This document shows positions 4,901 through 36,890 of a DNA stretch of 37,956 nucleotides, piece by piece. Under the pieces are notes generated by a model. The model was not told the origin of the DNA, did no database searches, and saw only the letters and a program-made list of their open reading frames with translations. The stretch lies in UHGV virus genome UHGV-0192057, one strand, 5' to 3'. How positions within the stretch are numbered: position 1 is the stretch's first letter; each line of letters begins with the position of its first letter. Source of the DNA: a virus. The position numbers and the translations under genes were made by a program.

Positions 4901-5881
4901 ATGAGCAAAGAACTGTTATCCGGTACGCCACTGAAATGGGTGGGCGGAAAAAGCCGCATCATGAACACACTGAAGGCGCATCTGCCAGAAGCAGACTGCC
5001 TGGTTGAGCCGTTTGTGGGTGGCGCATCGGTATTCATGAACACCAGTTACAAGCGTTACATCCTGGGTGATTCCAATGGTGCGCTGATTAATTTCTACCG
5101 GCAAGCCAGGGACAACACCGACAGCCTGATCGACGAGGCGAAAACCCTGTTCCTGAACCACAACAACAGGGGTGACTATCTCATCATTCGCGAAACCTTT
5201 AACGCAGAGAATCATGCCTTCCTGAACAGCAGAACGGGAATAAGCGACCGCCGTGAACTGCGACTGGCCGCCATGTTTTTGTACCTGAACCGACACAGCT
5301 TTAACGGTTTGTTCCGCGTGAACGGAAAAGGCGATTTTAACGTGCCTTTCGGCTGCTACCGCAAGCCCTACTTCCCTGAGCGGGAAATCCGCGCATTTGC
5401 AGACAAGGCAAACAGCACCCGAACGCTGCTTATCCACGCAGATTTTAAGGATACGCTGAACTCTGCCAGTCACCTGTTCGGCATGGGCAACACGCTTTGC
5501 GTGTACTGCGATCCCCCTTACCTGCGATTCAGTGGCCGGGACAATTTCACCGCCTACGGAAAACCATTCGATGAAGACGAGCACGTTCGTCTGAGGGCAG
5601 CGCTTGACCGCCTTTCACAGGAAACGGGCGGCATGACCAGCATCACCATCTCCAATTCCGACACACCGGAAACACGACGCATTTATCGGGGTTACCGGAT
5701 GAACTGCATACAGGCACCACGAAGCGTTGGCGCAAGAACCCGGGAATCAGCACCGGAGGTTATCGCCACCCTGAGACAGTGCGACGCCTGCGGTCACCAT
5801 GGCGGTGGCTACTGCCCGGACTGCGGACCTGTAACGGGAGATGCAACTTACAGCGTGATGTTTACCCCTGCCAGTACGTGA
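4901..5881 (+). CDS. dam: DNA adenine methyltransferase, Dam family (probable GATC N6-adenine MTase)
   Basis: Motifs PLKWVGGK, EPFVGGASVF (SAM binding), FLYLNRHSFNGLFRVN and catalytic DPPY (VYCDPPY); matches E. coli Dam from memory across the N-terminal two-thirds. Confidence 0.88.
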   Translation: MSKELLSGTPLKWVGGKSRIMNTLKAHLPEADCLVEPFVGGASVFMNTSYKRYILGDSNGALINFYRQARDNTDSLIDEAKTLFLNHNNRGDYLIIRETFNAENHAFLNSRTGISDRRELRLAAMFLYLNRHSFNGLFRVNGKGDFNVPFGCYRKPYFPEREIRAFADKANSTRTLLIHADFKDTLNSASHLFGMGNTLCVYCDPPYLRFSGRDNFTAYGKPFDEDEHVRLRAALDRLSQETGGMTSITISNSDTPETRRIYRGYRMNCIQAPRSVGARTRESAPEVIATLRQCDACGHHGGGYCPDCGPVTGDATYSVMFTPAST

Positions 5882-12106: not shown

Positions 12107-12751
12107 TCAGTCAAACCGAAATCGGCCGCTTGTCGCGTATGCATAGGTGACCACCGCACCCAGCGCATTCACACGCTTCTTCACATAAATCACATTACCA
12201 TCCTGATAGTCACCGTATGGGTAGCAAATAAAGATTGTTTTTTGCAAATCAGGATCATCAACAAATGCCCCTGAACAACTTTTTGAGCTACCGCGACTGT
12301 ACTCATAGGGAGCGGAATAGAATGAATCTTCACCCGGAAGAAAATATATCAGCGTAACCAGGAGGGTAAACAGAATCATCCAGGTAAGAAGGCACATACC
12401 CGAAAAAAACTTAAGATACGATGTAACCCCGGTAAATTTAGACCGATCAACCAGGTTCTTTTTCAACAGGCACAGTGAGACAAAAACCGAAAGCACCACA
12501 GACACTGAAACAAGGCAGTTTGTCGTGAACGAATAAAGGTAGGTAATTCTGTAAACATCGTTTCGCCACCAAATAAAAAGAAAAATCCCCCCCAAAACAG
12601 AAAGCGTGACAAAAGTTAAATAAGGATATGAGTAATTTTTCACAGTTCTCACCCGGCAATACACCACTGATTCAGACAGATGATTATCATCACCACCCAC
12701 CCCCAAAAATCGCAAGATAAAAAATGCACAAAAGCGCACGAAATTGCACAA
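12107..12751 (-). CDS. Hypothetical 3-TM membrane protein in the AT-rich tin/old-equivalent hotspot (start uncertain)
   Basis: 214-codon open frame in conspicuously AT-rich DNA; three hydrophobic segments and a roughly 85-aa C-terminal soluble domain. The track start is TTG; in-frame ATGs occur only near codon 123. Confidence 0.5.
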   Translation of the reverse strand: MCNFVRFCAFFILRFLGVGGDDNHLSESVVYCRVRTVKNYSYPYLTFVTLSVLGGIFLFIWWRNDVYRITYLYSFTTNCLVSVSVVLSVFVSLCLLKKNLVDRSKFTGVTSYLKFFSGMCLLTWMILFTLLVTLIYFLPGEDSFYSAPYEYSRGSSKSCSGAFVDDPDLQKTIFICYPYGDYQDGNVIYVKKRVNALGAVVTYAYATSGRFRFD

Positions 12752-16047: not shown

Positions 16048-16065
16048 TGTCGCCACGCTCTTACA
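16048..16065. promoter_or_regulatory. Ogr-type activator box (TGT-N12-ACA) between divergent P and O
   Basis: tgt-cgccacgctctt-aca centred about 55 bp from plausible transcription starts on both sides; P2 late promoters carry this dyad at about -55. Confidence 0.55.
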
Positions 16066-16137
16066 ACATCGCCGCCTTGAGGCGCAGCCATCCCCTTATC
16101 ATCATGAAGAAAAGCAACCCACAGAAAGGGGATTTAC

Positions 16138-16974
16138 ATGGCAAGTAAAAACGCGCCAGTACGGAAAAAATTCCGCGTCGCCGTCTCGGGCACCACCATC
16201 GACGGGCGTGAGATTTCGGGGCTGATGTTGCGTCAGGCCGCTGAGAATTACGACCCGGAAGTGTGGGGGTCACGGGTGAACGTGGAGCACATGCTTTCAC
16301 GTATGCCATCCAGTGAATTCAGTGCCGTGGGCGATGTGATTTCACTGTCCACCGAAGAAATCAGGGAAGGCAAACTGGCCGGCCGCACCGCACTGTATGC
16401 CGAAATTGAGCCCACCGACCGCATGACGCAGATGCTGAATGATGGCAAGAAAATCTACTCAAGCATTGAGCTTGAACCCAACATTGATGCCGTTGGCGGC
16501 CCTTACGTAATTGGCCTGGCAATGACCGATACCCCGGCAAGTCTCGGCACTGAACGACTGAAGTTTGCCGCCCAGCAGCGCGCCAGCATCATGCAGTTCA
16601 ACAGCCGCAACGGTGAGCCAGTCATGTTCACCGAATGTATGGAAGCGGAACTCGCGGCCTCCGTACAGGACAGCACCGAAGAAAGCCAGAAATGGTTTTC
16701 GCGCGTCATGGCGCTCATCAGCAAAACCCGTGACACGGACAGCGAGCAGTTCGCTCACGTGCGCGAAGCCGTCGAGAGCATTGCCACGGAACAGGCCGGC
16801 CTTCTGGATCGCTTCCATGCGATGGAAGAGCAACAGCGCAGTGATAAGGCATCACTGGAAACCCTGACCCGCGAACTGACTGAACTGAAGGCGCAGCTGA
16901 AAACCGAAGATGCAGACAAGGAACAGCGCTTTGCTTCAACCGGTGGCAACAGCCACGCCCTGGCTGATTTTTAA
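16138..16974 (+). CDS. O: Capsid scaffolding protein (gpO)
   Basis: 278 aa; acidic coiled-coil C-terminus; first gene of the rightward head operon. Confidence 0.88.
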   Translation: MASKNAPVRKKFRVAVSGTTIDGREISGLMLRQAAENYDPEVWGSRVNVEHMLSRMPSSEFSAVGDVISLSTEEIREGKLAGRTALYAEIEPTDRMTQMLNDGKKIYSSIELEPNIDAVGGPYVIGLAMTDTPASLGTERLKFAAQQRASIMQFNSRNGEPVMFTECMEAELAASVQDSTEESQKWFSRVMALISKTRDTDSEQFAHVREAVESIATEQAGLLDRFHAMEEQQRSDKASLETLTRELTELKAQLKTEDADKEQRFASTGGNSHALADF

Positions 16975-16989
16975 CAGAGGAACAAAATC

Positions 16990-18084
16990 ATGGGAAACCG
17001 CTTAACGCTTTCTCGCGAAGGCCGCAGCAATCTTGAGGCCTATCTTGCACGCCAGGCTGAACTGGCCGAAACCACCGTAGAACGACTGGGGAAAACCTTC
17101 AGCGTTGATCCGGCTGTTCATCAGAAGATGGAAAACGCCATCAAAGAGAGCGACGAGCTGCTGAAAAGAATCAACAGCATCGGCGTTGACGATCAGGAGG
17201 GTGAAAAAGTCCTGGTGAATACCAGCGGCCCCATCGCCAGCACCAACTCAACCAGTGACGGCGTGAAGCGACGCAATCCCGCTGACGTCTCTGATCTGGC
17301 ATCACGTCGTTATCGCTGCGAACAGGTGAACTACGACACCTTCATCAGCTACGCACAGATTGACGCGTGGAGCAGCCAGAAAAACTTCCAGCAACTGCTG
17401 AGTGCACAAATCACCCGACAGATTGCACTGGACCGTATCATGATTGGCTTTAACGGTGAGTCGCACGCCATCATCTCCGATCGTTCTGCCAACCCGAAAC
17501 TTCAGGACGTTAACACCGGGTGGCTGAAACACATCCGTGAACACGCCACGACGCGTGTCGTGAAGGCAATGACGCTGACCCGTCGCGATCATGAAAACAA
17601 ACTGGTTGCAAAAGGCGACTACGGCAACGCTGACGCGATGGTTAACGACATTCGCTCTTCCATACTGGATGAGTGGCACAAGGACGCCCCGGATCTGGTT
17701 GTTGTCATGGGCCGCAACCTGTTCAACACGCTGCGTCTGCCTATGATTAACGCCATCAGCACCACCAACCCGAACACGGAGCTGGTCGCCGGACAGCTGA
17801 TTACAGCCTCCCGCACCATTGGCGCGCTGCCAACCTTCTTTGCGCCGTACTTCCCGGACGATGCCATGCTGATCACGTCGTTCAGCAACCTTTCGGTCTA
17901 CTTCCAGAAAGGGTCACTGCGTCGCTTCATCCGTGAAGAGCCGGAGTACAACCGTATCGCCACCTACCAGTCCATGAACGACTGCTACGTGGTGGAAGAC
18001 TACGGCAAGTGCGCACTGATTGAGGGCATTTCTTTCGCCGGTGAAGATCCGGAAGACAAGAAAGAGGCAGAAGCACAGGCGTAA
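16990..18084 (+). CDS. N: Major capsid protein (gpN)
   Basis: 364 aa; matches P2 gpN from memory (FNGESHAIISDRSANPKLQDV..., PDLVVVMGR, YVVEDYGKCALIEGI). Confidence 0.93.
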   Translation: MGNRLTLSREGRSNLEAYLARQAELAETTVERLGKTFSVDPAVHQKMENAIKESDELLKRINSIGVDDQEGEKVLVNTSGPIASTNSTSDGVKRRNPADVSDLASRRYRCEQVNYDTFISYAQIDAWSSQKNFQQLLSAQITRQIALDRIMIGFNGESHAIISDRSANPKLQDVNTGWLKHIREHATTRVVKAMTLTRRDHENKLVAKGDYGNADAMVNDIRSSILDEWHKDAPDLVVVMGRNLFNTLRLPMINAISTTNPNTELVAGQLITASRTIGALPTFFAPYFPDDAMLITSFSNLSVYFQKGSLRRFIREEPEYNRIATYQSMNDCYVVEDYGKCALIEGISFAGEDPEDKKEAEAQA

Positions 18085-18133
18085 CGCATTATGGCGGGCA
18101 CATGTGCCCGCCGGTTAATCAGGAGTCGAATAC

Positions 18134-18943
18134 ATGCTGACACCGGCACAACGATACCTTCAGCGCGTGATGGCGCATCATCGGGCTGATCCATTCAGTC
18201 GCGAAGAGCAGCGAACACGAACGGCACATGAACAGGTTCTTCACCAGTTACGCCTCGCCCAGTTGCAGCTGAAGGGCGTGCAGTCGAACATCGCGAAAGC
18301 GGAGCTGAAGAAGCACCTGATACCGAATTTTGAAGGCTGGATAGACGGCACGCTGGCAGGCGACAGCGGACGCCAGGACGAAGTCATTACCACCATGATG
18401 GTGTGGGCAATTGACTGCCGGGATTATCCGCTGGCACTGCGTATCGGTGAGTACGTCATTCGTCACCGGCTGGCACTGCCGGACAACTTCGGGCGCGATT
18501 CGGCGACCGTGCTCACCGAAGAAATTGCCGAAGTTGTGCTGACAGAAGCCGCCACCAACAGCGAAACCGACTTATCCGGCTATATCCGTATGCTGGACGA
18601 GCTGGATGCACTGGTTCACGACCAGGACATGCCGGATCAGGTTCGTGCAAAACTACATAAGGCGCGGGCATTTTCACGGCGCGCATCAGGCAGTACGGAA
18701 GACATGACTGTGTCACTTGGTCTGCTGCGTGAAGCCATGCGCATCAATCCGGCAGCGGGCGTGAAGCGTGAAATCGCCACGCTGGCCAGAAAGGTATCAA
18801 AGGTTCAGCCGGAACCGGAAAAACCGGCAGAAGAGAAAAGTAAATCGAAAGCAACATCAGGGCGCAAAAAGCCGACTACAAAAGCGACGGCCAGAAAAGC
18901 CACGAAAAAAACCGCCGCAAAACCGGCGCGCAAGGCGACCTGA
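18134..18943 (+). CDS. M: Terminase small (endonuclease) subunit (gpM) with a Lys/Ala/Thr-rich C-terminal tail
   Basis: 269 aa at the P2 M position; last 45 aa low-complexity basic (KPAEEKSKSKATSGRKKPTTKATARKATKKTAAKPARKAT). Confidence 0.85.
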   Translation: MLTPAQRYLQRVMAHHRADPFSREEQRTRTAHEQVLHQLRLAQLQLKGVQSNIAKAELKKHLIPNFEGWIDGTLAGDSGRQDEVITTMMVWAIDCRDYPLALRIGEYVIRHRLALPDNFGRDSATVLTEEIAEVVLTEAATNSETDLSGYIRMLDELDALVHDQDMPDQVRAKLHKARAFSRRASGSTEDMTVSLGLLREAMRINPAAGVKREIATLARKVSKVQPEPEKPAEEKSKSKATSGRKKPTTKATARKATKKTAAKPARKAT

Positions 18944-19051
18944 TAACACCGGACCCGACCTCGTCGGCAGGCGGCGCGACCGGTGATCTGATCGCTGACT
19001 CCCGGTCATTTTCACCGGTCGCCCACCGCCTGATCTACAGGAGAAGACATC

Positions 19052-19546
19052 ATGAGCATGGTAGCCAGACCCCGTGTGAACGACGCCACGGATGACACGA
19101 CAGACACCGACGACGGAGAAGCGCGCATCAGTACAGACGCGTTCTGGCCGGATATCGTGCTGAAAGAGCTGCGCCTTGCCATGCGCATTCCCGGGCGCAC
19201 CACCACCTCACGTCTGCTGCATTCGGCCACCGAAGCTGTGGCACATGTAACGGCAGAGCTTGACGCCTGGAAACAGAAACAGGAGGCGGCGGGACGGTCG
19301 ACACTGGCGGACGTTCCGGCAGCACACATCAACGGTGAGAGCGTGAACGTGCACCGGTATCGACGCGCGGTGTATGCACTGACCCGCGCGGGCGTTCTTG
19401 AGCGTTCGCGGGATGTGGACACCACCGACAAAGGTGATCGCCGGGCCGATGCGCTGGACATGCAGATTGAAGATATGTGGCGCGATGCACGCTGGGCAAT
19501 ATCCGATATTCGCGGCGTCAGACGGATTTATGCGGAGCTGATTTAA
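19052..19546 (+). CDS. L: Head completion/stabilisation protein (gpL)
   Basis: 164 aa in the gpL position. Confidence 0.8.
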   Translation: MSMVARPRVNDATDDTTDTDDGEARISTDAFWPDIVLKELRLAMRIPGRTTTSRLLHSATEAVAHVTAELDAWKQKQEAAGRSTLADVPAAHINGESVNVHRYRRAVYALTRAGVLERSRDVDTTDKGDRRADALDMQIEDMWRDARWAISDIRGVRRIYAELI

Positions 19547-19746
19547 TGAAGGTAACCGCGCATGACGGCGACACCGTTGACTTACTCTGCCAGCGTCATT
19601 ACGGCATGACAAAGGGCGTGACAGAGCGCGTTCTGGCTGCCAATCCGGGGCTGAGTAACACGGTATTCCTCACTGCCGGGCAGGAAGTTGAATTACCGGA
19701 AATCACACAGGAAAAACAGCGCGAAACCGTTCAGTTGTGGGATTGA
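19546..19746 (+). CDS. X: Tail protein X (gpX, LysM-like)
   Basis: 66 aa with ATGA overlap to L (MKVTAHDGDTVDLLCQRHYG...). Confidence 0.8.
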   Translation: MKVTAHDGDTVDLLCQRHYGMTKGVTERVLAANPGLSNTVFLTAGQEVELPEITQEKQRETVQLWD

Positions 19747-19748
19747 TT

Positions 19749-20039
19749 ATGTTTCAGAGAATTTACGACCACATTACGTTTTTCACATCCGTCATGGTCA
19801 CCGGTATAGGGGTTATGACGCTGAGCGAGAAGATGGCGCTGGCAGGACTGATTCTGGGGGCGCTTTCACTGCTGCGCGGATGGATGCACAGAACACGTAT
19901 GGAGCAGGCACAGGAGCGGCGCAATGAGCTTATTGCACGCATTGCCGACCAGATGCAGCACCGACCACTAAAAGGCAGCGAGAAGCGCGCTCTGGAAGCC
20001 CTGAATGCAGACGGGGAATCACATGCCAGGACAGATTAA
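19749..20039 (+). CDS. Y: Holin (gpY-like)
   Basis: ATG at 19749; about 96 aa with hydrophobic helices (FFTSVMVTGIGVMTL, ALAGLILGALSLL) and a charged C-terminus; immediately upstream of the endolysin. Confidence 0.6.
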   Translation: MFQRIYDHITFFTSVMVTGIGVMTLSEKMALAGLILGALSLLRGWMHRTRMEQAQERRNELIARIADQMQHRPLKGSEKRALEALNADGESHARTD

Positions 20040-20562
20040 ACGCTATGCCGTTGCCGCCATCGTGGCGCTGGGTTTTTCGCTGGCCCCCGGGGAGCTGAGA
20101 ACCTCACAGGAGGCACAGGAAAAAATTGCCACCTGGGAAGAGTGTCGGGCATTCCCGTACAGGGATATCGCTGGCGTGAAAACAGTGGGTTGTGGCTCAA
20201 CGGGAAACGTCCCCGACCGCCACCATACCAAACAGGAAGTTGCCGGTCGATGGGTGAACGATTTACGACGGGCGGAGAACTGCATCAATCAGAATTTCAA
20301 TGGCCGCGACATGCCACAGCGCCACTTTGAGGCAATGACGGATGCTGCCTTTAATCTGGGGTGCAAAGGCCTGATGTGGTTTAAGGGGCGTGACGGGAGG
20401 ATGCACAGAACAACCATCTGGAAGTTCGCTCAGGGAAAGAACTGGAGCGCAATGTGCGGCAGGCTGACGGATTTTGTGAACAGCGGCGGACGCTATTCAC
20501 AGGGGCTGTTTAACCGGCGCAATGACTTCAGGAACTGGTGTATGAACGGAGTGAAGCAATGA
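20023..20562 (+). CDS. K: Endolysin (gpK-like lysozyme) with N-terminal signal-anchor (SAR-like) segment
   Basis: ATG at 20023; N-terminus MPGQIKRYAVAAIVALGFSLAPG is hydrophobic; sits between holin and spanins. Confidence 0.78.
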   Translation: MPGQIKRYAVAAIVALGFSLAPGELRTSQEAQEKIATWEECRAFPYRDIAGVKTVGCGSTGNVPDRHHTKQEVAGRWVNDLRRAENCINQNFNGRDMPQRHFEAMTDAAFNLGCKGLMWFKGRDGRMHRTTIWKFAQGKNWSAMCGRLTDFVNSGGRYSQGLFNRRNDFRNWCMNGVKQ

Positions 20563-20993
20563 AAACACCTGCCGTGTTGCTCTGGTTTCTTGCCACCCTG
20601 TTGCTTTGTGGCCTGACAGGCTGGGAAGCATACCGCAAAGGGAAGGAAAGTCTCGGACGGGAACAGATGATGGACATCATAGAGGACAACCGCGCCGCCA
20701 TGCAGGAAGTTCGCCATGCATACACAGACTTTTCCAGGGTGATAAACGTGATCCGCATTCTGGACCAGCAACGGATCACAGAAGGAGAGCAACGACGTGA
20801 AGAAATGCAAAAAGCCGTGCAGGGCGACACGTGTGCCAGCGCTTATCCTCCCGCTGCTGTTACTGAGCGGTTGCAGCAACACGCCGCACACGTTGAAAAC
20901 CAGACTCGTTTACGAGCCGGTGCCGACAGTTCTGACAAGGCAGACCCCGGTTCCGGCACTGGAAATACCCGTGACATGGTACAGGGTGACTGA
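20559..20993 (+). CDS. lysB: i-spanin (LysB/Rz-like)
   Basis: ATG at 20559 overlapping the K stop; one N-terminal TM (AVLLWFLATLLLCGL) then a charged coiled-coil region. Confidence 0.6.
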   Translation: MKTPAVLLWFLATLLLCGLTGWEAYRKGKESLGREQMMDIIEDNRAAMQEVRHAYTDFSRVINVIRILDQQRITEGEQRREEMQKAVQGDTCASAYPPAAVTERLQQHAAHVENQTRLRAGADSSDKADPGSGTGNTRDMVQGD

Positions 20994-21108
20994 ATGGAGC
21001 GATCGGCTACTGGAAGCACTCGACACATGCAACGCAGACAAGGCTGCGATCGCCTGGCTGGATAAACAAAGAGCAGAACGGGCGCAAGATGCGCCCCATC
21101 AGGAGTAA
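20797..21108 (+). CDS. lysC: o-spanin (LysC/Rz1-like lipoprotein) overlapping lysB in the +1 frame
   Basis: Lipobox LLLSGCS after a signal-like segment; Pro-rich; overlapped architecture with the i-spanin. Exact start uncertain. Confidence 0.55.
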   Translation: MKKCKKPCRATRVPALILPLLLLSGCSNTPHTLKTRLVYEPVPTVLTRQTPVPALEIPVTWYRVTEWSDRLLEALDTCNADKAAIAWLDKQRAERAQDAPHQE

Positions 21109-21111
21109 ACG

Positions 21112-23082
21112 ATGAGCAAAAAACACTTTGAACTGATTACTGCCACCAACCGCGCAGAATTCGCTGAAAAAGTTAACAAGCGGTTACAGGAAGGCTGGGA
21201 ACTTCTCGGTAATGCCGGTATTGCATCAGAGCCGGGAGTCCCCTGGTATCTCATGCAGGCTATGGTTTCAGGCAGTGATGACCAGGGAGGCACCATTATC
21301 ACCCCGACATCCGACAGCGAACCGGAGTGGTATTACGTTGTGGTGAGCGCTGGTCAGTCCAACTCTATGGCATACGGTGAGGGGTTACCTCTCCCGGACA
21401 GTTACGATAAACCCGATTCGCGCATTCGCCAGCTGGCACGCCGCAGCACCGTAACCCCGAGCGGAAAAGCCTGTGCCTATAACGACATCATTCTGGCGGA
21501 TCACTGCCTGCATGACGTGCAGGATATGAGCCAGTACAACCACCCGAAAGCCGACCTGAACAAAGGTCAGTATGGCTGTGTGAGTCAGGGATTGCACATT
21601 GCGAAGCGCCTGCTGCCATTTATCCCGGCAAATGCGGGGATCCTTCTGGTCCCATGCAGCCGTGGCGGTTCCGGCTTTACAACCGGTGATGCGGGGCAAT
21701 TCAGCGAGATCGGCGGCGCAACTGAAAAATCCTGCCGCTGGGGAACGAACACGCCGCTGTACAAGGATTTAATCAGCCGCACAAAAGCAGCGCTGGCGAA
21801 AAATCCGAAAAACGTCCTGCTGGCCGTCTGCTGGACACAGGGCGAGGCAGATCTTGAGAAAGAACAAAACGCCGCACAGCATAAAGATCTTTTCACAGCC
21901 ATGGTGAAGCAGTTCCGGGCTGACCTGGCCGATGTTGCGAAGCAGTGCAACCAGGGCAACCCTGAAAGCGTGCCGTGGATTTGTGGAGATACCACCTACC
22001 ACTGGAAAAAAACCTACGAAGCACAGTACGCAACCGTGTATGGCGGATACAAAAACAGCACTGAGAAGAATATTGTTTTTGTGCCTTTTGTTACGGATGA
22101 GTACGGGAAAAACACCCCAACAAACGAGCCGACAGAAGATCCGGATATTGCGGAAGCGGGTTATTACGGTGCCGCATCCCGCAGTAGCGGAAACTGGGTA
22201 AGCCATCTGCGTGGAACGCACTTCAGCTCATGGGCCCGCCGGGGCATTATTGCCGATCGCATGGCGTCAGCAATCCTGCTTAACGTCGGCCGCACGCTGC
22301 CATTTATTGCGGGTACAGAGCCGGAACGCGTGGCAAAACCATCACAGGATGCACCGGGCGGCATCAGTAAGCCATCTTCACCGGAAACAGAACAACCGGC
22401 AGTCAGACCGGGGCCGGTCACGCTCATGAGTCTGCTGGCATCATCTCCTGAACTGGAAAGCCAGGGCTGGACGCTGAGCGAAGGCAAAAACGGGGCCAAC
22501 ACACCAAAACAACTGAAAGACATGCTGATCGGTGATGAGGAAGCAACAGGGAAAAAAGCCCTGAAACTGACCAAACAGGAAGGCAATACCTGGTATCTGG
22601 ATCATAAGGCCGGTAATGGTGCTGACCTTCTGAAAAATGGCGGGACTGTAAGTTGCCGATTCAAAATCGAGGGTGAGCTGAAAAAAGACCAGTACGCAAT
22701 GGCGATGTACTGGAAAACATCAGCATTACCGCAGGATGTGAAATTACTGGGGGCAGATCCAAATAATTTATTGCTCTCATTCTTTCTTCAGACAGACAGC
22801 GCAAACCTGAATCTGATGTATCACAAAACGCCAAACGAACAACTGGGAACCTTTGGTCAGTTCAATAACAACTGGCACACCATAGCGTTTCGTTTTGCGG
22901 GAAACAACAGCACCCAGGTAACACCGGTTCTGGATGGCGTGGACGGAAAACCGTTCATGCTTTCCACATCAAAAGCCGATGTTACCAACGACACGTTACG
23001 CGTGACCGATATCACGTATCGGCCGACCTATACCGTACTGATTGACAGCCTGAGCGTTGTCGTAAATCAGCCACCGGCATAA
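21112..23082 (+). CDS. NanS-p-like sialate O-acetylesterase (DUF1737-like N-terminus + SASA/SGNH esterase core + C-terminal domain)
   Basis: 656 aa; motifs VVVSAGQSNSMAYGEG (GQSN catalytic-Ser block), PCSRGGSGF, WTQGEADL; N-terminus MSKKHFELITATNRAEFAEKVNKRLQEGWELLG resembles the DUF1737 domain of prophage NanS-p esterases. Family assignment is from memory. Confidence 0.6.
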   Translation: MSKKHFELITATNRAEFAEKVNKRLQEGWELLGNAGIASEPGVPWYLMQAMVSGSDDQGGTIITPTSDSEPEWYYVVVSAGQSNSMAYGEGLPLPDSYDKPDSRIRQLARRSTVTPSGKACAYNDIILADHCLHDVQDMSQYNHPKADLNKGQYGCVSQGLHIAKRLLPFIPANAGILLVPCSRGGSGFTTGDAGQFSEIGGATEKSCRWGTNTPLYKDLISRTKAALAKNPKNVLLAVCWTQGEADLEKEQNAAQHKDLFTAMVKQFRADLADVAKQCNQGNPESVPWICGDTTYHWKKTYEAQYATVYGGYKNSTEKNIVFVPFVTDEYGKNTPTNEPTEDPDIAEAGYYGAASRSSGNWVSHLRGTHFSSWARRGIIADRMASAILLNVGRTLPFIAGTEPERVAKPSQDAPGGISKPSSPETEQPAVRPGPVTLMSLLASSPELESQGWTLSEGKNGANTPKQLKDMLIGDEEATGKKALKLTKQEGNTWYLDHKAGNGADLLKNGGTVSCRFKIEGELKKDQYAMAMYWKTSALPQDVKLLGADPNNLLLSFFLQTDSANLNLMYHKTPNEQLGTFGQFNNNWHTIAFRFAGNNSTQVTPVLDGVDGKPFMLSTSKADVTNDTLRVTDITYRPTYTVLIDSLSVVVNQPPA

Positions 23083-23146
23083 CAATGCTTCCCAGCCATC
23101 CGGCGGGGAAGCTCGCTGACAACCGGGAAAATAAAAGGAGCAAGCC

Positions 23147-23311
23147 ATGGGATTTATTCATCAGATAATGTTGTATTTCAGTACCGCCGTATCCCTTCTG
23201 TATCTGATCTCAGGGGGATATAAAGCCGTCCGCAATTTCTGGAACAAAAAGATAGATGAAGCAGCCGCCAGGAAATCAGCTGGCGGAGCGGTCAACGGGG
23301 TATTGCCATAA
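23147..23311 (+). CDS. Small membrane protein (54 aa)
   Basis: Hand-translated MGFIHQIMLYFSTAVSLLYLISGGYKAVRNFWNKKIDEAAARKSAGGAVNGVLP; strong AAGGAG 7 nt upstream; below the ORF-track cutoff. Confidence 0.45.
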   Translation: MGFIHQIMLYFSTAVSLLYLISGGYKAVRNFWNKKIDEAAARKSAGGAVNGVLP

Positions 23312-23483
23312 CAACAGGCACAGCGCATCAGAACGGCACCACTGTCCACAGCAAAAGAAACAAAAAACCCTCCGGTATACGGAGGGTGCAAGAGGGGAAA
23401 GGTGAGCAAGAAAGAACCCGAATTAAAAGCCATTTAATTTTGAGATTTTTAATTGCCACACGCAACACGTTCTACGGTGTTTT

Positions 23484-23954
23484 ATGCTGAAACTGAATTC
23501 ATTACGCGAAGCTCTGACCAGCAACTGCCGGTGGTGTAAGGCCAGCCCGGAAAAATTCACGGTATTCATTGAATCGGGTGGCATTGAAACCACCGGTGAA
23601 TCCCCCTCATTCCTGTACCGCTACAACCTGGTGTTGTTCGTCATGGACTTCACAGAAAGTATCGACAACATCATGCTGCCGGTCATGGCGTGGCTGTACA
23701 GGAATCAGCCGGATCTTCTTCTCAATCCGGAGAAGAACAAAAGCATCAAATTTTCGACGGCCATCAACGATGACGACAGTGCCGATATCCTGCTGGAAAT
23801 CCCGGTATGGGAGCGCGTGATTGTGCGCCGTAATGACGACGGCACGGTGACGGCAGAGCACATCGGTGAGCCCCCGATAAGCCGGGCACTGGAAGCATGG
23901 CGCGTAGTGTTTGAAGACATGACGTGGCGAACCGGAACGGAGACCAGCACATGA
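23484..23954 (+). CDS. R: Tail completion protein R (gpR)
   Basis: 156 aa at the gpR position; ATGA overlap with S. Confidence 0.8.
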   Translation: MLKLNSLREALTSNCRWCKASPEKFTVFIESGGIETTGESPSFLYRYNLVLFVMDFTESIDNIMLPVMAWLYRNQPDLLLNPEKNKSIKFSTAINDDDSADILLEIPVWERVIVRRNDDGTVTAEHIGEPPISRALEAWRVVFEDMTWRTGTETST

Positions 23955-24586
23955 GAGCGGACCGCGAACTGGATGCCATCTTTCAGGATATTCTTTCCGG
24001 CCTGTCGGCAGCCGGAATTCAGCGCACGGCAATGAGCGTGGGTAAGGTCGTCCGACAGCTACAGACAAAACGCATCAGAAGCCAGGTATCCCCGGAAGGC
24101 CAGCCATGGGAGAAACGAAAACGCCGCATCATGCGCATACAAAAAGGCGTGAAGTTTATCTGGAAGGACGGCCAGGTAAGAAACCTGAAAAACTGGAGCA
24201 CGTCACAGGGATGTTTCGGGCAGAAAATCACCGGCTACGATACGGACGCCGGGGGGATCAGGACGTTTTACAAGGCAGACATCGGGGACTACCTGGAAAT
24301 TAACACACAGCGCGTCGCAGCAAGAGCATCACGTCGCTCACCTATGTTCGAAAAGCTGAGAACAGCACGCTTTCTGAGAATCATCCCCGACACAAACGGC
24401 GTAAGTGTCGGCTTTCAGGGCCGGGCCGCGCGTATTGCCAGAGTGCACCAGTTCGGTGAGGTGGGCCTGGTATCACCCGGGAACGCCACGAAATACCCCG
24501 TGCGCGAGCTGCTGGGCCTGAACGAAAAAGACAAACAGCAAATCACAGAAACCGTGATTGCCGGACTGGGGAAAGCAGCGAAATGA
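23951..24586 (+). CDS. S: Tail completion / virion morphogenesis protein S (gpS)
   Basis: ATG at 23951; stop overlaps the V start. Confidence 0.75.
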   Translation: MRADRELDAIFQDILSGLSAAGIQRTAMSVGKVVRQLQTKRIRSQVSPEGQPWEKRKRRIMRIQKGVKFIWKDGQVRNLKNWSTSQGCFGQKITGYDTDAGGIRTFYKADIGDYLEINTQRVAARASRRSPMFEKLRTARFLRIIPDTNGVSVGFQGRAARIARVHQFGEVGLVSPGNATKYPVRELLGLNEKDKQQITETVIAGLGKAAK

Positions 24587-25164
24587 ACATCGAGCTTATG
24601 CGTCTGCTGGAAAACATTGTGCGGATTGGTGTGGTTACGGAAATCAACACCGACACCTGGGAGGTGCGTGTGCAGACCGGCGGCCTGACCACAAACTGGA
24701 TCCGATGGAACAGCGGGCGGGCCGGAAAATTTAAAATCTGGATCCCCCCATCACCGGGCGAACAGGTGTTTCTCCTATGCCCGGGCGGCAATCCGGAAAC
24801 CGCAGTCAGCGCAGGAAGTCTGTACAGCAACGACAACCCGCCACCGGGATCGCTGGAAAACGAAATGGTCATTACCGCGCCGGACGGTGCGGAATTTCGC
24901 TATAACGCACAGGAAAGCAGCCTGACGGCCAGAGGTATAAAAACCGCAACCATTACGGCTGAAACCAGTATCACGCTGGACGCGCCAAAGGTGGAATGTA
25001 CGCAGTTGCTGAAGACAAAGACATTCGAGCTGACCAGCGGCGGAACAATGAAAGGCAACGTGAAACACAGTGGCGGCAGCCTCGAATCAAACGGCATCAC
25101 CGTACACACCCACGTACACAGCGGAGTGAAGAGCGGTAGCGATACGAGCGGAGGCCCACAATGA
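24583..25164 (+). CDS. V: Baseplate spike/assembly protein V (gpV)
   Basis: 193 aa; C-terminal HTHVHSGVKSGSDTSG motif typical of gpV spike apex. Confidence 0.85.
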   Translation: MNIELMRLLENIVRIGVVTEINTDTWEVRVQTGGLTTNWIRWNSGRAGKFKIWIPPSPGEQVFLLCPGGNPETAVSAGSLYSNDNPPPGSLENEMVITAPDGAEFRYNAQESSLTARGIKTATITAETSITLDAPKVECTQLLKTKTFELTSGGTMKGNVKHSGGSLESNGITVHTHVHSGVKSGSDTSGGPQ

Positions 25165-25529
25165 GTACCGGCTACACAGGCATGTATCACGCAGGCTACG
25201 GAACGCTGACAGACATCGACCATCTGAACCAGTCAATCACGGATATTATCCTGACACCGGAAGGTTCGCGTGTTATGCGGCGCGAGTATGGCAGCAACCT
25301 GCCCGCTCTTCTTGACAGTCCGGCAAATGAAATAACCAGACTGCGCTGTATGAGTGCCGCCGTGATCGCCATTACACGATGGGAGCCACGCGTTGCCATA
25401 AACAGCGTGGACCTGACGTGGAGAAACAATGGCAGCGCAGTGTTATCCATGAGCTATCTGATTGTAAGCACCATGCAGAGCGCCAGTATTTCCGTTGATA
25501 TACAGGGAGGGAAGGATGCCGACAATTGA
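25161..25529 (+). CDS. W: Baseplate protein W (gpW)
   Basis: 122 aa, position and size; ATGA overlap with V. Confidence 0.78.
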   Translation: MSTGYTGMYHAGYGTLTDIDHLNQSITDIILTPEGSRVMRREYGSNLPALLDSPANEITRLRCMSAAVIAITRWEPRVAINSVDLTWRNNGSAVLSMSYLIVSTMQSASISVDIQGGKDADN

Positions 25530-26412
25530 TTTATCCCAGCTGCCGCAACCGGCGATCATTGAATCGCTGGATTATGAAGTGATTCTGGCACAGACAAAGA
25601 CATTCATGATTAGCGTCTTTCCGGAAGCCATGCGCGATGAAGTGGCGGCAGCCCTTGAACTGGAGTCAGAACCACTGAACATCATCGCTCAGGCTATGGC
25701 ATGGCGGGAGCTGTTACTGCGGCAGCGAATCAATGATGGCGCAGCGGCCTGTATGCTGAGTCATTCATCAGGAAGCGATCTTGACAATCTGGGTGCAAAC
25801 ATGAATGTGCAGCGCCTGGTTATCACCGAAGCAACGGAGACCACACCGGCGGTAATGGAAAGTGACGCCGCGTTCCGGATGCGCATACAGAGCGCCTTTG
25901 AAGGGATGAGTGTTGCCGGGCCTTCCGGCTCATATGAGTATTTTGCACGCAGCGCAAGCGGAAAAGTGGCAGATGCCAGAGCAACCAGCCCGGCACCGGC
26001 GGAAGTTGTGGTTGCGCTCCTTTCAGCCGACGGAGACGGAACGGCGAACGAAGCACTGATTAACGAAGTGAAAGCCGTACTGAACGACGAAACAGTTCGC
26101 CCCGTGGCGGACAGACTGACGGTGAAAAGCGCGGAAATCATCAGCTACAAGATTGATGCGACACTCTATTTTTACCCGGGGCCGGAATCAGAACCCATAC
26201 TTCAGGCCGCACGGGCACAACTGGAGGCGTGGCTGGCAGAGCAGCGAAGAATTGGTCGTGACGTGGCCCGTTCAGCCATCATGGCGGCCCTGCATGTGCC
26301 CGGAGTTCAGCGGGTGGAGTTAACACAACCAGCGAAGGATCTGGTGATCAGCGAAACACAGGCGGCGCGATGCTCCGCCACAGAGATTCGCGCCGGGGGG
26401 ACCGATGAGTAA
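25516..26412 (+). CDS. J: Baseplate assembly protein J (gpJ)
   Basis: ATG at 25516 (MPTIDLSQLPQPAIIESLDYE...); about 298 aa. Confidence 0.88.
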   Translation: MPTIDLSQLPQPAIIESLDYEVILAQTKTFMISVFPEAMRDEVAAALELESEPLNIIAQAMAWRELLLRQRINDGAAACMLSHSSGSDLDNLGANMNVQRLVITEATETTPAVMESDAAFRMRIQSAFEGMSVAGPSGSYEYFARSASGKVADARATSPAPAEVVVALLSADGDGTANEALINEVKAVLNDETVRPVADRLTVKSAEIISYKIDATLYFYPGPESEPILQAARAQLEAWLAEQRRIGRDVARSAIMAALHVPGVQRVELTQPAKDLVISETQAARCSATEIRAGGTDE

Positions 26413-27124
26413 AACGGTGCTTCCGCCGTCTGCCAGTGTTTTTCTGAAAACCGTTGATCGCTCCGGGGAAAAAATCAGCCAGCTGCCGGTGAAACTTAAC
26501 ACCCTGTGGAATGCGGACGAATGCCCTGAAGTACTGCTGCCATGGCTCGCATGGACGCTTTCAGTGGACAGATGGGATAAGGCATGGACGGAAGAGACTC
26601 GCCGGGACGTTATACGCGAGTCGTGGATGGTTCACCGTCATAAGGGGACCATCAGCGCCATGAGAAGAGCTATTGCCCCGTTCGGCGCGCTGCTGAGCAT
26701 TACAGAGTGGTGGGAAAACGGCGACCCTCCAGGCAGTTTTCGTCTCAACATCGATGTTACACATGCAGCCCTGACAGAGGCGACCTATCAGGAAATGGAG
26801 CGCATGATTGCGCTGGCGAAGCCGGTAAGCCGTCACCTGAAAGCACTGAGGCTGACATACATTGCAAAAGGGGAAGTCTTTACCGGGGCAGTGAGTCATA
26901 GCGGAGACATCATACAGGTATATCCGGACGCAACACTGCCGAACCCCTGCATTACCGGAGGAGAAATTTATTGTGCTGGCGCGATTTACGACAGTGACAT
27001 AACCCGGGTTAAACCGGATACGGAGATACCGTCACCGTGCGCCGCACAAGCCGCTATCTGTATAGCCGGAACAACATACGACGGCACAACGACCATCGTA
27101 AAACCGGCACCGGAGGAACCATGA
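26405..27124 (+). CDS. I: Tail/baseplate protein I (gpI)
   Basis: 239 aa between J and the tail fibre. Confidence 0.82.
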   Translation: MSKTVLPPSASVFLKTVDRSGEKISQLPVKLNTLWNADECPEVLLPWLAWTLSVDRWDKAWTEETRRDVIRESWMVHRHKGTISAMRRAIAPFGALLSITEWWENGDPPGSFRLNIDVTHAALTEATYQEMERMIALAKPVSRHLKALRLTYIAKGEVFTGAVSHSGDIIQVYPDATLPNPCITGGEIYCAGAIYDSDITRVKPDTEIPSPCAAQAAICIAGTTYDGTTTIVKPAPEEP

Positions 27125-36618: not shown

Positions 36619-36749
36619 CGGCTGGAAGGATTACCTGAAGGCCGGATGTGGAAAGGCCCCGAGTCAAACATATTGTTTAACCCGAGGCCCTGACCATCTA
36701 ACCGTGACAAGTGGAAGGTTAGCGCCTCTTTGAAAAAGGAGCAAGCGCT

Positions 36750-36890
36750 ATGCCGCAAAAAACGATCATCGTGAGCATTTTATGCTTAACCATGTTGTTG
36801 ACCGTCTGGATGATACACCGTTCACCGTGTGAGTTCAGACTTAACATCATGTGGTCAGAATTTGCGGCGTTCTTGCAGTGTAAACAGTAA
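36750..36890 (+). CDS. Hok/Gef-family type I toxin (HokA-like, 46 aa)
   Basis: Hand-translated MPQKTIIVSILCLTMLLTVWMIHRSPCEFRLNIMWSEFAAFLQCKQ; AGGAG 9 nt upstream; resembles E. coli HokA from memory (MPQK..., TWMIRDSLCE..., AAFLACK); single TM then conserved Cys. Confidence 0.6.
   Translation: MPQKTIIVSILCLTMLLTVWMIHRSPCEFRLNIMWSEFAAFLQCKQ

Follow-up and report, generated by a model that had tools for sequence, protein, structure and literature searches.

The subject of this analysis is a 37,956-nucleotide stretch of the virus genome UHGV-0192057 (hereafter the window, meaning the stretch at its full length), which stems from a P2-like Escherichia coli prophage whose integration site adjoins serS, and within it a pair of genes located between the spanin genes and the tail completion gene R. 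We propose that this pair, consisting of nanS-p, predicted to encode a sialate O-acetylesterase, and a gene for a small protein of family DUF1378, constitutes a two-gene cassette fixed in the late operon of this P2-like E. coli prophage, a reading to which we assign a probability of roughly 0.75. NanS-p has so far been treated as a trait of lambdoid phages and Shiga toxin (Stx) phages that is tied to the fitness of enterohemorrhagic E. coli. As far as could be found, its occurrence in P2-like phages is apparently undescribed; a literature search yielded no paper linking the two. The genes of the pair and the parts of the larger product, given in amino acids (aa), are located as follows:

21112..23082 (including the stop codon), plus strand: nanS-p-like gene, 656 aa (open reading frame, Pfam, PHROG_143, 3pt5, 6yp6)
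21118..21267 (aa 3-52), plus strand: DUF1737 domain, P2-specific subtype, loop EPGVPWYLMQAM (Pfam, structural model, P2-only contexts, ratio of non-synonymous to synonymous substitution rates, dN/dS)
21319..22287 (aa 70-392), plus strand: SGNH/SASA esterase domain (~55% identity to NanS 3pt5, SGNH blocks)
21358..21360, plus strand: codon of the predicted nucleophile Ser83 in block I, GQSN (alignment to NanS and NanS-p)
22219..22221, plus strand: codon of the predicted catalytic His370 in block IV, RGTH (alignment to NanS and NanS-p)
22411..23067 (aa 434-652), plus strand: C-terminal lectin-like jelly-roll domain including DUF6645 (6yp6, Foldseek)
23147..23311, plus strand: DUF1378 gene, 54 aa (Pfam PF07125, phrog_494)

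The 656-aa protein exhibits the architecture DUF1737–SASA/SGNH–DUF6645, which is the build of NanS-p, and all three Pfam matches score above the gathering threshold. DUF1737 is recognized at aa 3-52 (E 1.6e-08 in the full protein and E 4.3e-10 with the isolated N-terminus), SASA at aa 148-274 (E 3.4e-13, the model being only partly matched) and DUF6645 at aa 507-620 (E 1.5e-44), while the PHROG_143 profile covers the protein end to end (E 1.7e-296). When sequences of the PDB were searched, the chromosomal esterase NanS (YjhS, 3pt5) aligned to aa 70-389 (E 2.4e-114) with 177 of the 320 columns identical, i.e., ~55%, and the C-terminal domain of NanS-p from phage phi24B (6yp6) aligned to aa 434-652 (E 3.3e-63, 52% identity). 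The four SGNH blocks that have been described for NanS and NanS-p (PMC10462455) are kept, namely GQSN (aa 81-84), RGGS (aa 184-187), QGE (aa 243-245) and RGTH (aa 367-370), the last of these differing from the other R-x-x-H forms, RSSH, RASH and RPTH, of block IV in NanS-p from Stx phages (PMC10462455). These matches confirm, at the level of sequence, that the open reading frame belongs, in intact form, to the NanS-p family already known from phages, and they support the prediction that its product is a sialate O-acetylesterase of the NanS-p type.

A first, sequence-only reading of this DNA had placed the two open reading frames exactly where they are listed above, had taken GQSN and W-x-QGE-x-D blocks as signs of a sialate O-acetylesterase and had named a Pfam search for SASA and DUF1737 as a check. 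Both domains were matched, GQSN was found at aa 81-84 and W-T-QGE-A-D at aa 241-247, and the alignment to NanS agrees with the assignment. The same reading held that the lack of a Ser/His/Asp arrangement in a structural model would speak against it. Ser83 and His370 are present and unchanged across 25 aligned homologues; the demand for Asp was too strict, and its lack would not disqualify the protein from the family, because Ser and His are the only residues proven to be catalytic in NanS, where an acidic partner is not known (PMC10017367, review).

An AlphaFold2 model calculated from a 25-sequence alignment reached a mean predicted local distance difference test score (pLDDT) of 69, with values below 50 around the loops carrying Ser83 and His370. 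With this model, Foldseek ranked 3pt5 and 6yp6 first (template modeling score of 0.88 to 6yp6); the next matches were jelly rolls of the lectin-like kind, among them 2w68, the domain with which the Vibrio cholerae sialidase binds sialic acid. The aromatic binding site of 6yp6 is formed by Y510, Y515, Y540 and F611; three of these positions are aromatic in the window protein as well (Y528, Y533, F558), and the equivalent of F611 coincides with an alignment gap. The N-terminus is without any hydrophobic, signal-peptide-like stretch. PADLOC returned zero defense-system matches, NCBIfam nothing meaningful and Rfam no RNA family in the region 20700-23700.

With regard to known relatives, lambdoid NanS-p proteins (933W Z1466/L0105; phi24B vb_24B_21, i.e., gp84) share the DUF1737–SASA–DUF6645 build and the SGNH blocks, and their genes likewise reside in a late operon beside lysis genes and are followed by DUF1378, so that the statement in the sequence-only reading that such esterases are known as cargo near the lysis genes of lambdoid prophages was borne out by the same gene pair in lambdoid Stx phages. 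Overall identity to the window protein amounts to just 51-56%. The window DUF1737 is a distinct subtype, 24-38% identical to that of lambdoid NanS-p and equipped with another putative anchor loop. Location differs also: the lambdoid gene usually lies in the late region between stx/Q and the holin gene S, whereas the window gene follows the spanins of a P2-like myovirus in the slot between lysC and R, a feature that is contextual only. Chromosomal NanS is a single-domain enzyme encoded in the nanCMS operon and described as periplasmic. Its catalytic domain shares ~55% identity with that of the window protein over 320 residues as well as the same Ser and His; the window protein differs by the lack of a signal peptide and by its additional N- and C-terminal domains.

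The 54-aa product of the second gene was assigned to DUF1378 (PF07125, E 6e-21; phrog_494). It contains one hydrophobic stretch (aa 3-21) with a Kyte-Doolittle 19-residue mean of 1.61, which is borderline for a membrane helix, and the predicted helix is followed by a basic amphipathic tail. An N-terminal hydrophobic helix succeeded by a basic segment of the pattern SGGY[KR]A..[FW] is common to the homologues from 933W, TL-2011c, BP-4795 and a Mu-like prophage, and the protein from the window shares 50% identity with the product of an open reading frame that follows nanS-p at the corresponding place in 933W. Among phage records, 309 contain DUF1378 and 347 a nanS-p homologue, those sampled all being Stx or other lambdoid phages; the two genes were neighbors in every case checked, and DUF1378 directly follows nanS-p in the Mu-like prophage too. 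DUF1378 is predicted to be a small protein of the inner membrane whose gene accompanies nanS-p. A role as a lysis-timing factor, i.e., as a holin or antiholin accessory brought to its place by a cassette that landed beside lysis genes and not as a partner of the esterase, would suit a small single-pass membrane protein whose gene sits just upstream of holin S in lambdoid phages and comes after the lysis cassette in the window. We consider it unlikely, as the gene of the Mu-like prophage lies after nanS-p at the genome end with no recognisable lysis gene beside it, P2-like lineages without DUF1378 retain an intact lysis cassette, and DUF1378 tracks nanS-p in ~300 phage records. The 933W open reading frame (59 aa, NC_000924 25261-25440, corresponding to 5073-5252 of locus L004) is missing from the RefSeq annotation, which features an overlapping hypothetical open reading frame of 148 aa in its place.

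The position of the pair within the late operon is defined by the following neighbors and signals:

19477-19746: X (local gene order)
19737-20039: holin (local gene order)
20005-20562: lysozyme (local gene order)
20538-20993, plus strand: Rz-like LysB, left border (phrog_214/456)
ending at 21108 (stop codon 21106-21108), plus strand: Rz1-like LysC, left border, overlapping LysB (phrog_214/456, Pfam LysC PF23793, RefSeq annotation of the identical prophage)
21101..21105, plus strand: ribosome-binding site AGGAG for nanS-p, within the last part of lysC (sequence)
23135..23140, plus strand: AAGGAG ribosome-binding site of the DUF1378 gene, 6 nt before the ATG (sequence)
23484..23954, plus strand: tail completion gene R, right border (Pfam P2_Phage_GpR PF06891, E 9e-41)
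after gpR: gpS (local gene order)
16048..16065, no strand assigned: closest TGT-N12-ACA dyad on the upstream side, between the divergent terminase and scaffold genes (motif scan)

The start codon of nanS-p is located 3 nt past the stop codon of lysC. Motif scans detected no sigma-70-like site near nanS-p or DUF1378 within 18000-25000, the single one lying inside nanS-p at 22738; from 16066 to 27058 they were also negative for TGT-N12-ACA sites of the Ogr type. We take TGT-N12-ACA to be the activator site of P2 late promoters, and the dyad at 16048-16065 is presumed to mark the Ogr-dependent late promoter from which the operon with nanS-p is transcribed. Because of the 3-nt gap to lysC, the ribosome-binding site within lysC and the lack of a nearby promoter motif, nanS-p and DUF1378 read as genes of the late operon that also delivers R and S and not as a self-contained moron.

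A hairpin is present at 23367-23387, downstream of DUF1378 (8 bp, GC-rich, -16.4 kcal/mol, z = -4.0). On the plus strand it has an A-tract on its 5' side and no U-tract after it, a T-run being found on the minus strand only. It is consequently terminator-shaped for the minus strand only and is probably not a forward terminator; it should not efficiently stop late transcription on the plus strand, which fits the location of the essential genes R and S downstream of it. A combination of A-tract and hairpin also occurs after nanS-p in 933W (L004, ~4946-4976) and in the P2-like locus L002 (8558-8580). GC content falls from 0.54-0.57 to 0.46-0.51 over ~22400-23800, i.e., over the C-terminal domain, DUF1378 and the spacer, while the flanks range at ~0.55-0.58 and the 5' two-thirds of nanS-p agree with them. 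No donor for the low-GC 3' half together with DUF1378 was found above ~72% nucleotide identity among 5426 complete E. coli genomes.

Several further points of the sequence-only reading can be judged on this basis. It had put the genes between the spanins and R on the strand of the late operon, in agreement with the profile matches for LysB, LysC and gpR, and it had noted a strong ribosome-binding site ahead of a small open reading frame with a single transmembrane segment, which corresponds to the AAGGAG sequence and the one, borderline hydrophobic stretch. The hairpin that it listed is real, its terminator shape being restricted to the minus strand. Its suggestion of modular transfer of a moron agrees with the presence or absence of the genes among close relatives, empty lysC/R junctions being found in L042 and L044-L048, and with the atypical base composition of the 3' part, though not of the 5' two-thirds of nanS-p; it does not hold in so far as the genes show no promoter motif of their own, were not acquired in a single transfer and include an N-terminal domain native to P2-like phages. 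The survey of P2-like prophages for cargo at the lysC/R junction, which it had recommended, revealed the same slot filled in at least three P2-like lineages and empty in six related prophages.

The lysC/R slot is occupied by nanS-p in no fewer than three P2-like lineages of E. coli that have diverged from one another. A pattern scan of IMG/VR returned 33 loci, all 33 with the order gpX–LysB–LysC–nanS-p–gpR–gpS, that split into the lineage of the window, with gpR identities of 90-100%, and the remote lineage ii, with 56-58% for gpR and 44% for LysC. The nanS-p gene of lineage ii encodes 625-627 aa and lies 27 nt from R without DUF1378; a third lineage, L038, features nanS-p, DUF1378 and R, and the same slot is also occupied in L002 and L003. 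The window allele belongs to a 90% identity cluster of its own with 277 member sequences, its next relatives being at most ~60% identical. Among the 5426 complete E. coli genomes, 14 contain the prophage segment of the window at ≥99.7% identity and 373 (~7%) the arrangement of lineage ii. The deposited Peduoviridae phage vB_EcoM-705R2 likewise carries the gene in the lysC/R slot, where it is annotated as hypothetical. When 50,697 phage records were searched with the locus, megablast returned nothing and relatives were detected by tblastn only, and phmmer with the 58-aa N-terminal domain against 1.84 billion representatives gave 10 matches, mostly short fragments, which are uninformative on architectures. 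On the other hand, the junction is empty in the E. coli lineage-ii prophage L042 and in P2-like prophages from Citrobacter, Edwardsiella, Symbiopectobacterium and Salmonella records as well as on one contig labeled Vagococcus. The search of genome contigs with a gpR alignment returned only five loci, which keeps the sample of cargo sites from species other than E. coli small. The contig labeled Vagococcus sp. WN89Y (L047) carries an enterobacterial P2-like segment with a gpS 98% identical to that of L042, which suggests that the assembly is contaminated or mislabeled. Altogether, nanS-p is well established, recurs in several P2-like lineages of E. coli and is not a single or recent insertion.

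Four lineage-ii P2-like copies of nanS-p (L033, L034, L036 and L037) are truncated or internally deleted and encode 218, 273, 286 and 286 aa, respectively; those of L036 and L037 look like the result of an in-frame deletion that spared the N-terminal domain and the C-terminal end. Such copies, together with the DUF1378 pseudogene of L002, might be expected if the cassette were decaying passenger DNA without current function. For the window this is hardly credible, given an intact open reading frame with all catalytic motifs, ≥99.7% identity across 14 genomes, a 90% cluster of 277 members and a dN/dS of ~0.1 across all domains.

Comparison of the three domains of the window protein with their counterparts revealed a mosaic. 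The identities to the window protein are:

Sister P2-like lineage: N-terminal domain 75-77%, catalytic domain 64-78%, C-terminal domain 38-40%
Lineage ii: N-terminal domain 58%, catalytic domain 69-72%, C-terminal domain 38%
L038: N-terminal domain 50%, catalytic domain 68%, C-terminal domain 56%
Lambdoid alleles: N-terminal domain 24-38%, catalytic domain 69-75%, C-terminal domain 54-59% (P0099 alone 41%)
Mu-like version: N-terminal domain without similarity, catalytic domain 73%, C-terminal domain 56%

The loop motif EPG[VT]P[WF]YLMQA is common to all P2-context proteins, the lambdoid loops being different, and this DUF1737 subtype was met solely in P2-like contexts. Where synonymous sites are unsaturated, the dN/dS of the N-terminal domain amounts to 0.07-0.14, and that of the catalytic domain is similar. 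Between L002 and L003, the proportion of synonymous differences (pS) is 0.30 in the N-terminal domain and 0.76 in the catalytic domain. The clearest case of exchange concerns P2-like L009 (6240-7740) and L041, a lambdoid prophage of E. coli Ec-U3 with Q, tRNAs, holin and a 645-aa capsid protein: ~1.5 kb of nanS-p DNA, starting at codon ~80 and ending ~45 codons short of the stop codon, are ~100% identical, while the N-terminal domain and the flanks are unrelated. This pattern indicates that gene conversion took place very recently between phages of unrelated types. The Mu-like prophage (L039 10001-12707; L040; metagenome contigs) encodes a 689-aa NanS-p in which the same enzyme and lectin domains follow a different N-terminus that is not DUF1737; DUF1378 and DUF826 come next, and the locus is situated after a Gin-like invertase gene, beside type VI secretion system genes. 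The enzyme and lectin domains, with DUF1378, thus behave as exchangeable cargo that is swapped with lambdoid alleles, whereas the DUF1737 domain stays with the P2-like phage backbone under purifying selection and is native and not a lambdoid import.

Three IMG/VR sequences, L011 (6001-13872), L014 and L017, combine a P2-like left flank of gpX, LysB and LysC with nanS-p and a lambdoid right flank consisting of a 933W-type holin (99%), DUF1327, lysozyme, Rz, Nu1 and gpA. They are either prophage recombinants that arose via the shared nanS-p or assembly chimeras at a 1.5-kb repeat.

NanS-p from Stx prophages de-O-acetylates 5-N-acetyl-9-O-acetylneuraminic acid (Neu5,9Ac2) and mucin glycans, allows growth of lysogens on Neu5,9Ac2 and is up-regulated upon induction (PMC8065619). 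By analogy, nanS-p of the window would be expressed during lytic growth only, from the Ogr-dependent late promoter and together with lysis and tail proteins; the enzyme would leave the cell at lysis and remove 9-O-acetyl groups from the sialic acids of gut mucin glycans, to which the lectin domain would direct it. At release it may be docked to the phage head via the P2-specific DUF1737, and the virion would then carry a module that both binds and modifies mucus. An alternative raised for NanS-p (PMC8065619) is that the esterase aids adsorption or host range by stripping O-acetyl groups from bacterial surface glycans, such as O-acetylated K1 polysialic acid or O-antigen, so that the phage reaches its receptor. 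Co-production with virion proteins would suit this role, which we nevertheless judge quite improbable for an enzyme whose gene is located away from the tail-fiber genes, whose N-terminal domain is homologous to a capsid-binding and not a tail-binding domain, whose catalytic domain is nearest to that of NanS, a sialate-specific enzyme, and whose C-terminal domain resembles lectin modules of the sialoglycan type.

The idea of docking derives from phage phi24B, where, according to a 2026 preprint, the NanS-p gp84 is abundant in the virion and its DUF1737 forms a hexamer plugging the pore of the face-center hexons in a capsid of T=9 symmetry, while the remaining parts of gp84 are cleaved off after release (bioRxiv 10.64898/2026.04.10.717836). 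The DUF1737 domains of gp84 and the window protein are homologous, with the same predicted strand-helix-strand-loop-strand fold (in the window model strands 5-11, 30-38 and 46-53 and helix 14-26, pLDDT ~70-82), and both proteins possess flexible inter-domain linkers with an SSP motif in the second one (KPSSPE, ASSPE). The window protein differs in having no SISSP after its N-terminal domain, and the capsid protein of its prophage is of the P2 gpN type and not of the phi24B type. In four of five lambdoid genomes checked, the type of N-terminal domain follows that of the capsid: 933W and TL-2011c have one capsid protein and one N-terminal type in common, and BP-4795 and L041 share the 645-aa capsid protein and the N-terminal type although their enzyme domains differ. 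A strict rule of one DUF1737 subtype for one capsid family, with which the P2-like phages also agree, was rejected on account of PhiR12_4, in which an N-terminal domain of the BP-4795 type is paired with a lambda E/D head.

Docking of the enzyme on the phage's own head is what we tentatively put forward, at less than even odds, as the most likely task of the N-terminal domain. It competes with the view that NanS-p is a purely soluble public good, released by a few lysing cells and allowing surviving lysogens to grow on 9-O-acetylated sialic acid, with DUF1737 having no capsid role and being merely an inherited 5' end. This view is a real possibility, if somewhat short of an even chance. It accords with the published function of NanS-p, i.e., growth on Neu5,9Ac2, mucin de-O-acetylation and induction (PMC8065619, PMC10462455), with an anchor residue, Tyr42, that is not conserved and with the association of one N-terminal type with two unrelated capsid families; it accounts less well for purifying selection that acts with equal strength on the N-terminal and the catalytic domain (dN/dS ~0.1), for the persistence of this domain where the remainder of the gene was swapped for a near-identical lambdoid allele, for the different N-terminal domain on the same enzyme in the Mu-like phage and for the presence of the phi24B protein in the virion.

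A more specific version of the docking proposal, which we regard as rather doubtful, is that the P2-specific DUF1737 docks esterase and lectin on gpN hexamers of the T=7 capsid, that the resulting device would, in the manner of a hemagglutinin-esterase, let the virion bind O-acetylated sialomucin and move through it, and that the N-terminal domain would be an exchangeable capsid adaptor in lambdoid, P2-like and Mu-like phages. The Psu protein of P4 decorates the gpN hexamers of P2/P4-type capsids and would set a precedent, since it is an accessory protein placed at the hexamer center; it is encoded by the satellite P4 and not by the helper phage and has no sequence relation to NanS-p. The hemagglutinin-esterases of influenza C virus and betacoronaviruses combine an SGNH sialate-O-acetylesterase with a jelly-roll lectin on the virion and bind reversibly to O-acetylated sialoglycans in mucus. 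The likeness would be a functional analogy, valid only if NanS-p is displayed on the capsid, and not membership, since hemagglutinin-esterases are membrane glycoproteins of enveloped viruses with no demonstrated homology past the SGNH fold.

A number of observations weigh against the overall interpretation. With respect to the cassette, DUF1378 is a pseudogene in L002 and missing in L003 and lineage ii and is therefore dispensable in P2-like phages, and retention of the N-terminal domain could reflect merely missing homology for recombination in this part of the gene. The catalytic loops are of low confidence in the AlphaFold model, so that the active-site geometry is taken from sequence homology to 3pt5 only, and the enzyme activity, late expression and virion role of P2-context NanS-p are extrapolated from homologues. 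With respect to docking, heads of the P2 type have T=7 symmetry and lack face-center hexons. The flat face-center hexons are the only ones to which phi24B gp84 binds (bioRxiv 10.64898/2026.04.10.717836). Its "tooth" residue Tyr42 corresponds to Val43 in the window protein, so that this anchor is not conserved, and the anchor loop reads SEPGVPWY in the window and TAGYGAEF in phi24B; the aromatic residues W45 and Y46 near Val43 are putative equivalents of Tyr42 only. Finally, the same N-terminal type occurs both with the 645-aa capsid protein of BP-4795 and with the lambda E/D head of PhiR12_4.

These results place nanS-p among the regular genes of the late operon in P2-like prophages of ordinary E. 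coli from humans, animals and wastewater, which widens the pool of esterases acting on the sialic acids of gut mucin. The 1.5 kb of near-identical DNA common to unrelated prophage types are a substrate for inter-prophage recombination. The mosaic of a phage-bound N-terminal domain and swapped enzyme and lectin domains offers a testable handle on the role of DUF1737 and on capsid display of mucus-active enzymes.

With regard to the remainder of the element, a prophage of E. coli S1-CAM-02-A is 99.9% identical to positions 20500-24000 of the window (3.5-kb query), and its annotation lists a P2-family capsid protein, GPO scaffold, gpM, L, X, lysozyme, LysC, R, S, V, W, J, I, tail fiber, sheath, tube, D and ogr. 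Between ssb and the portal gene, the window contains a single open reading frame of 214 aa (12107-12751, minus strand) without any Pfam match, while the near-identical prophage L001 is ~2.7 kb longer at this site and carries four hypothetical genes on the minus strand; the site is probably a variable cargo hotspot of P2-like phages. A gene for a toxin of the Hok/Gef family is annotated at 34250-34390 in L001, at the prophage end next to serS, and would correspond to ~36749-36889 of the window.

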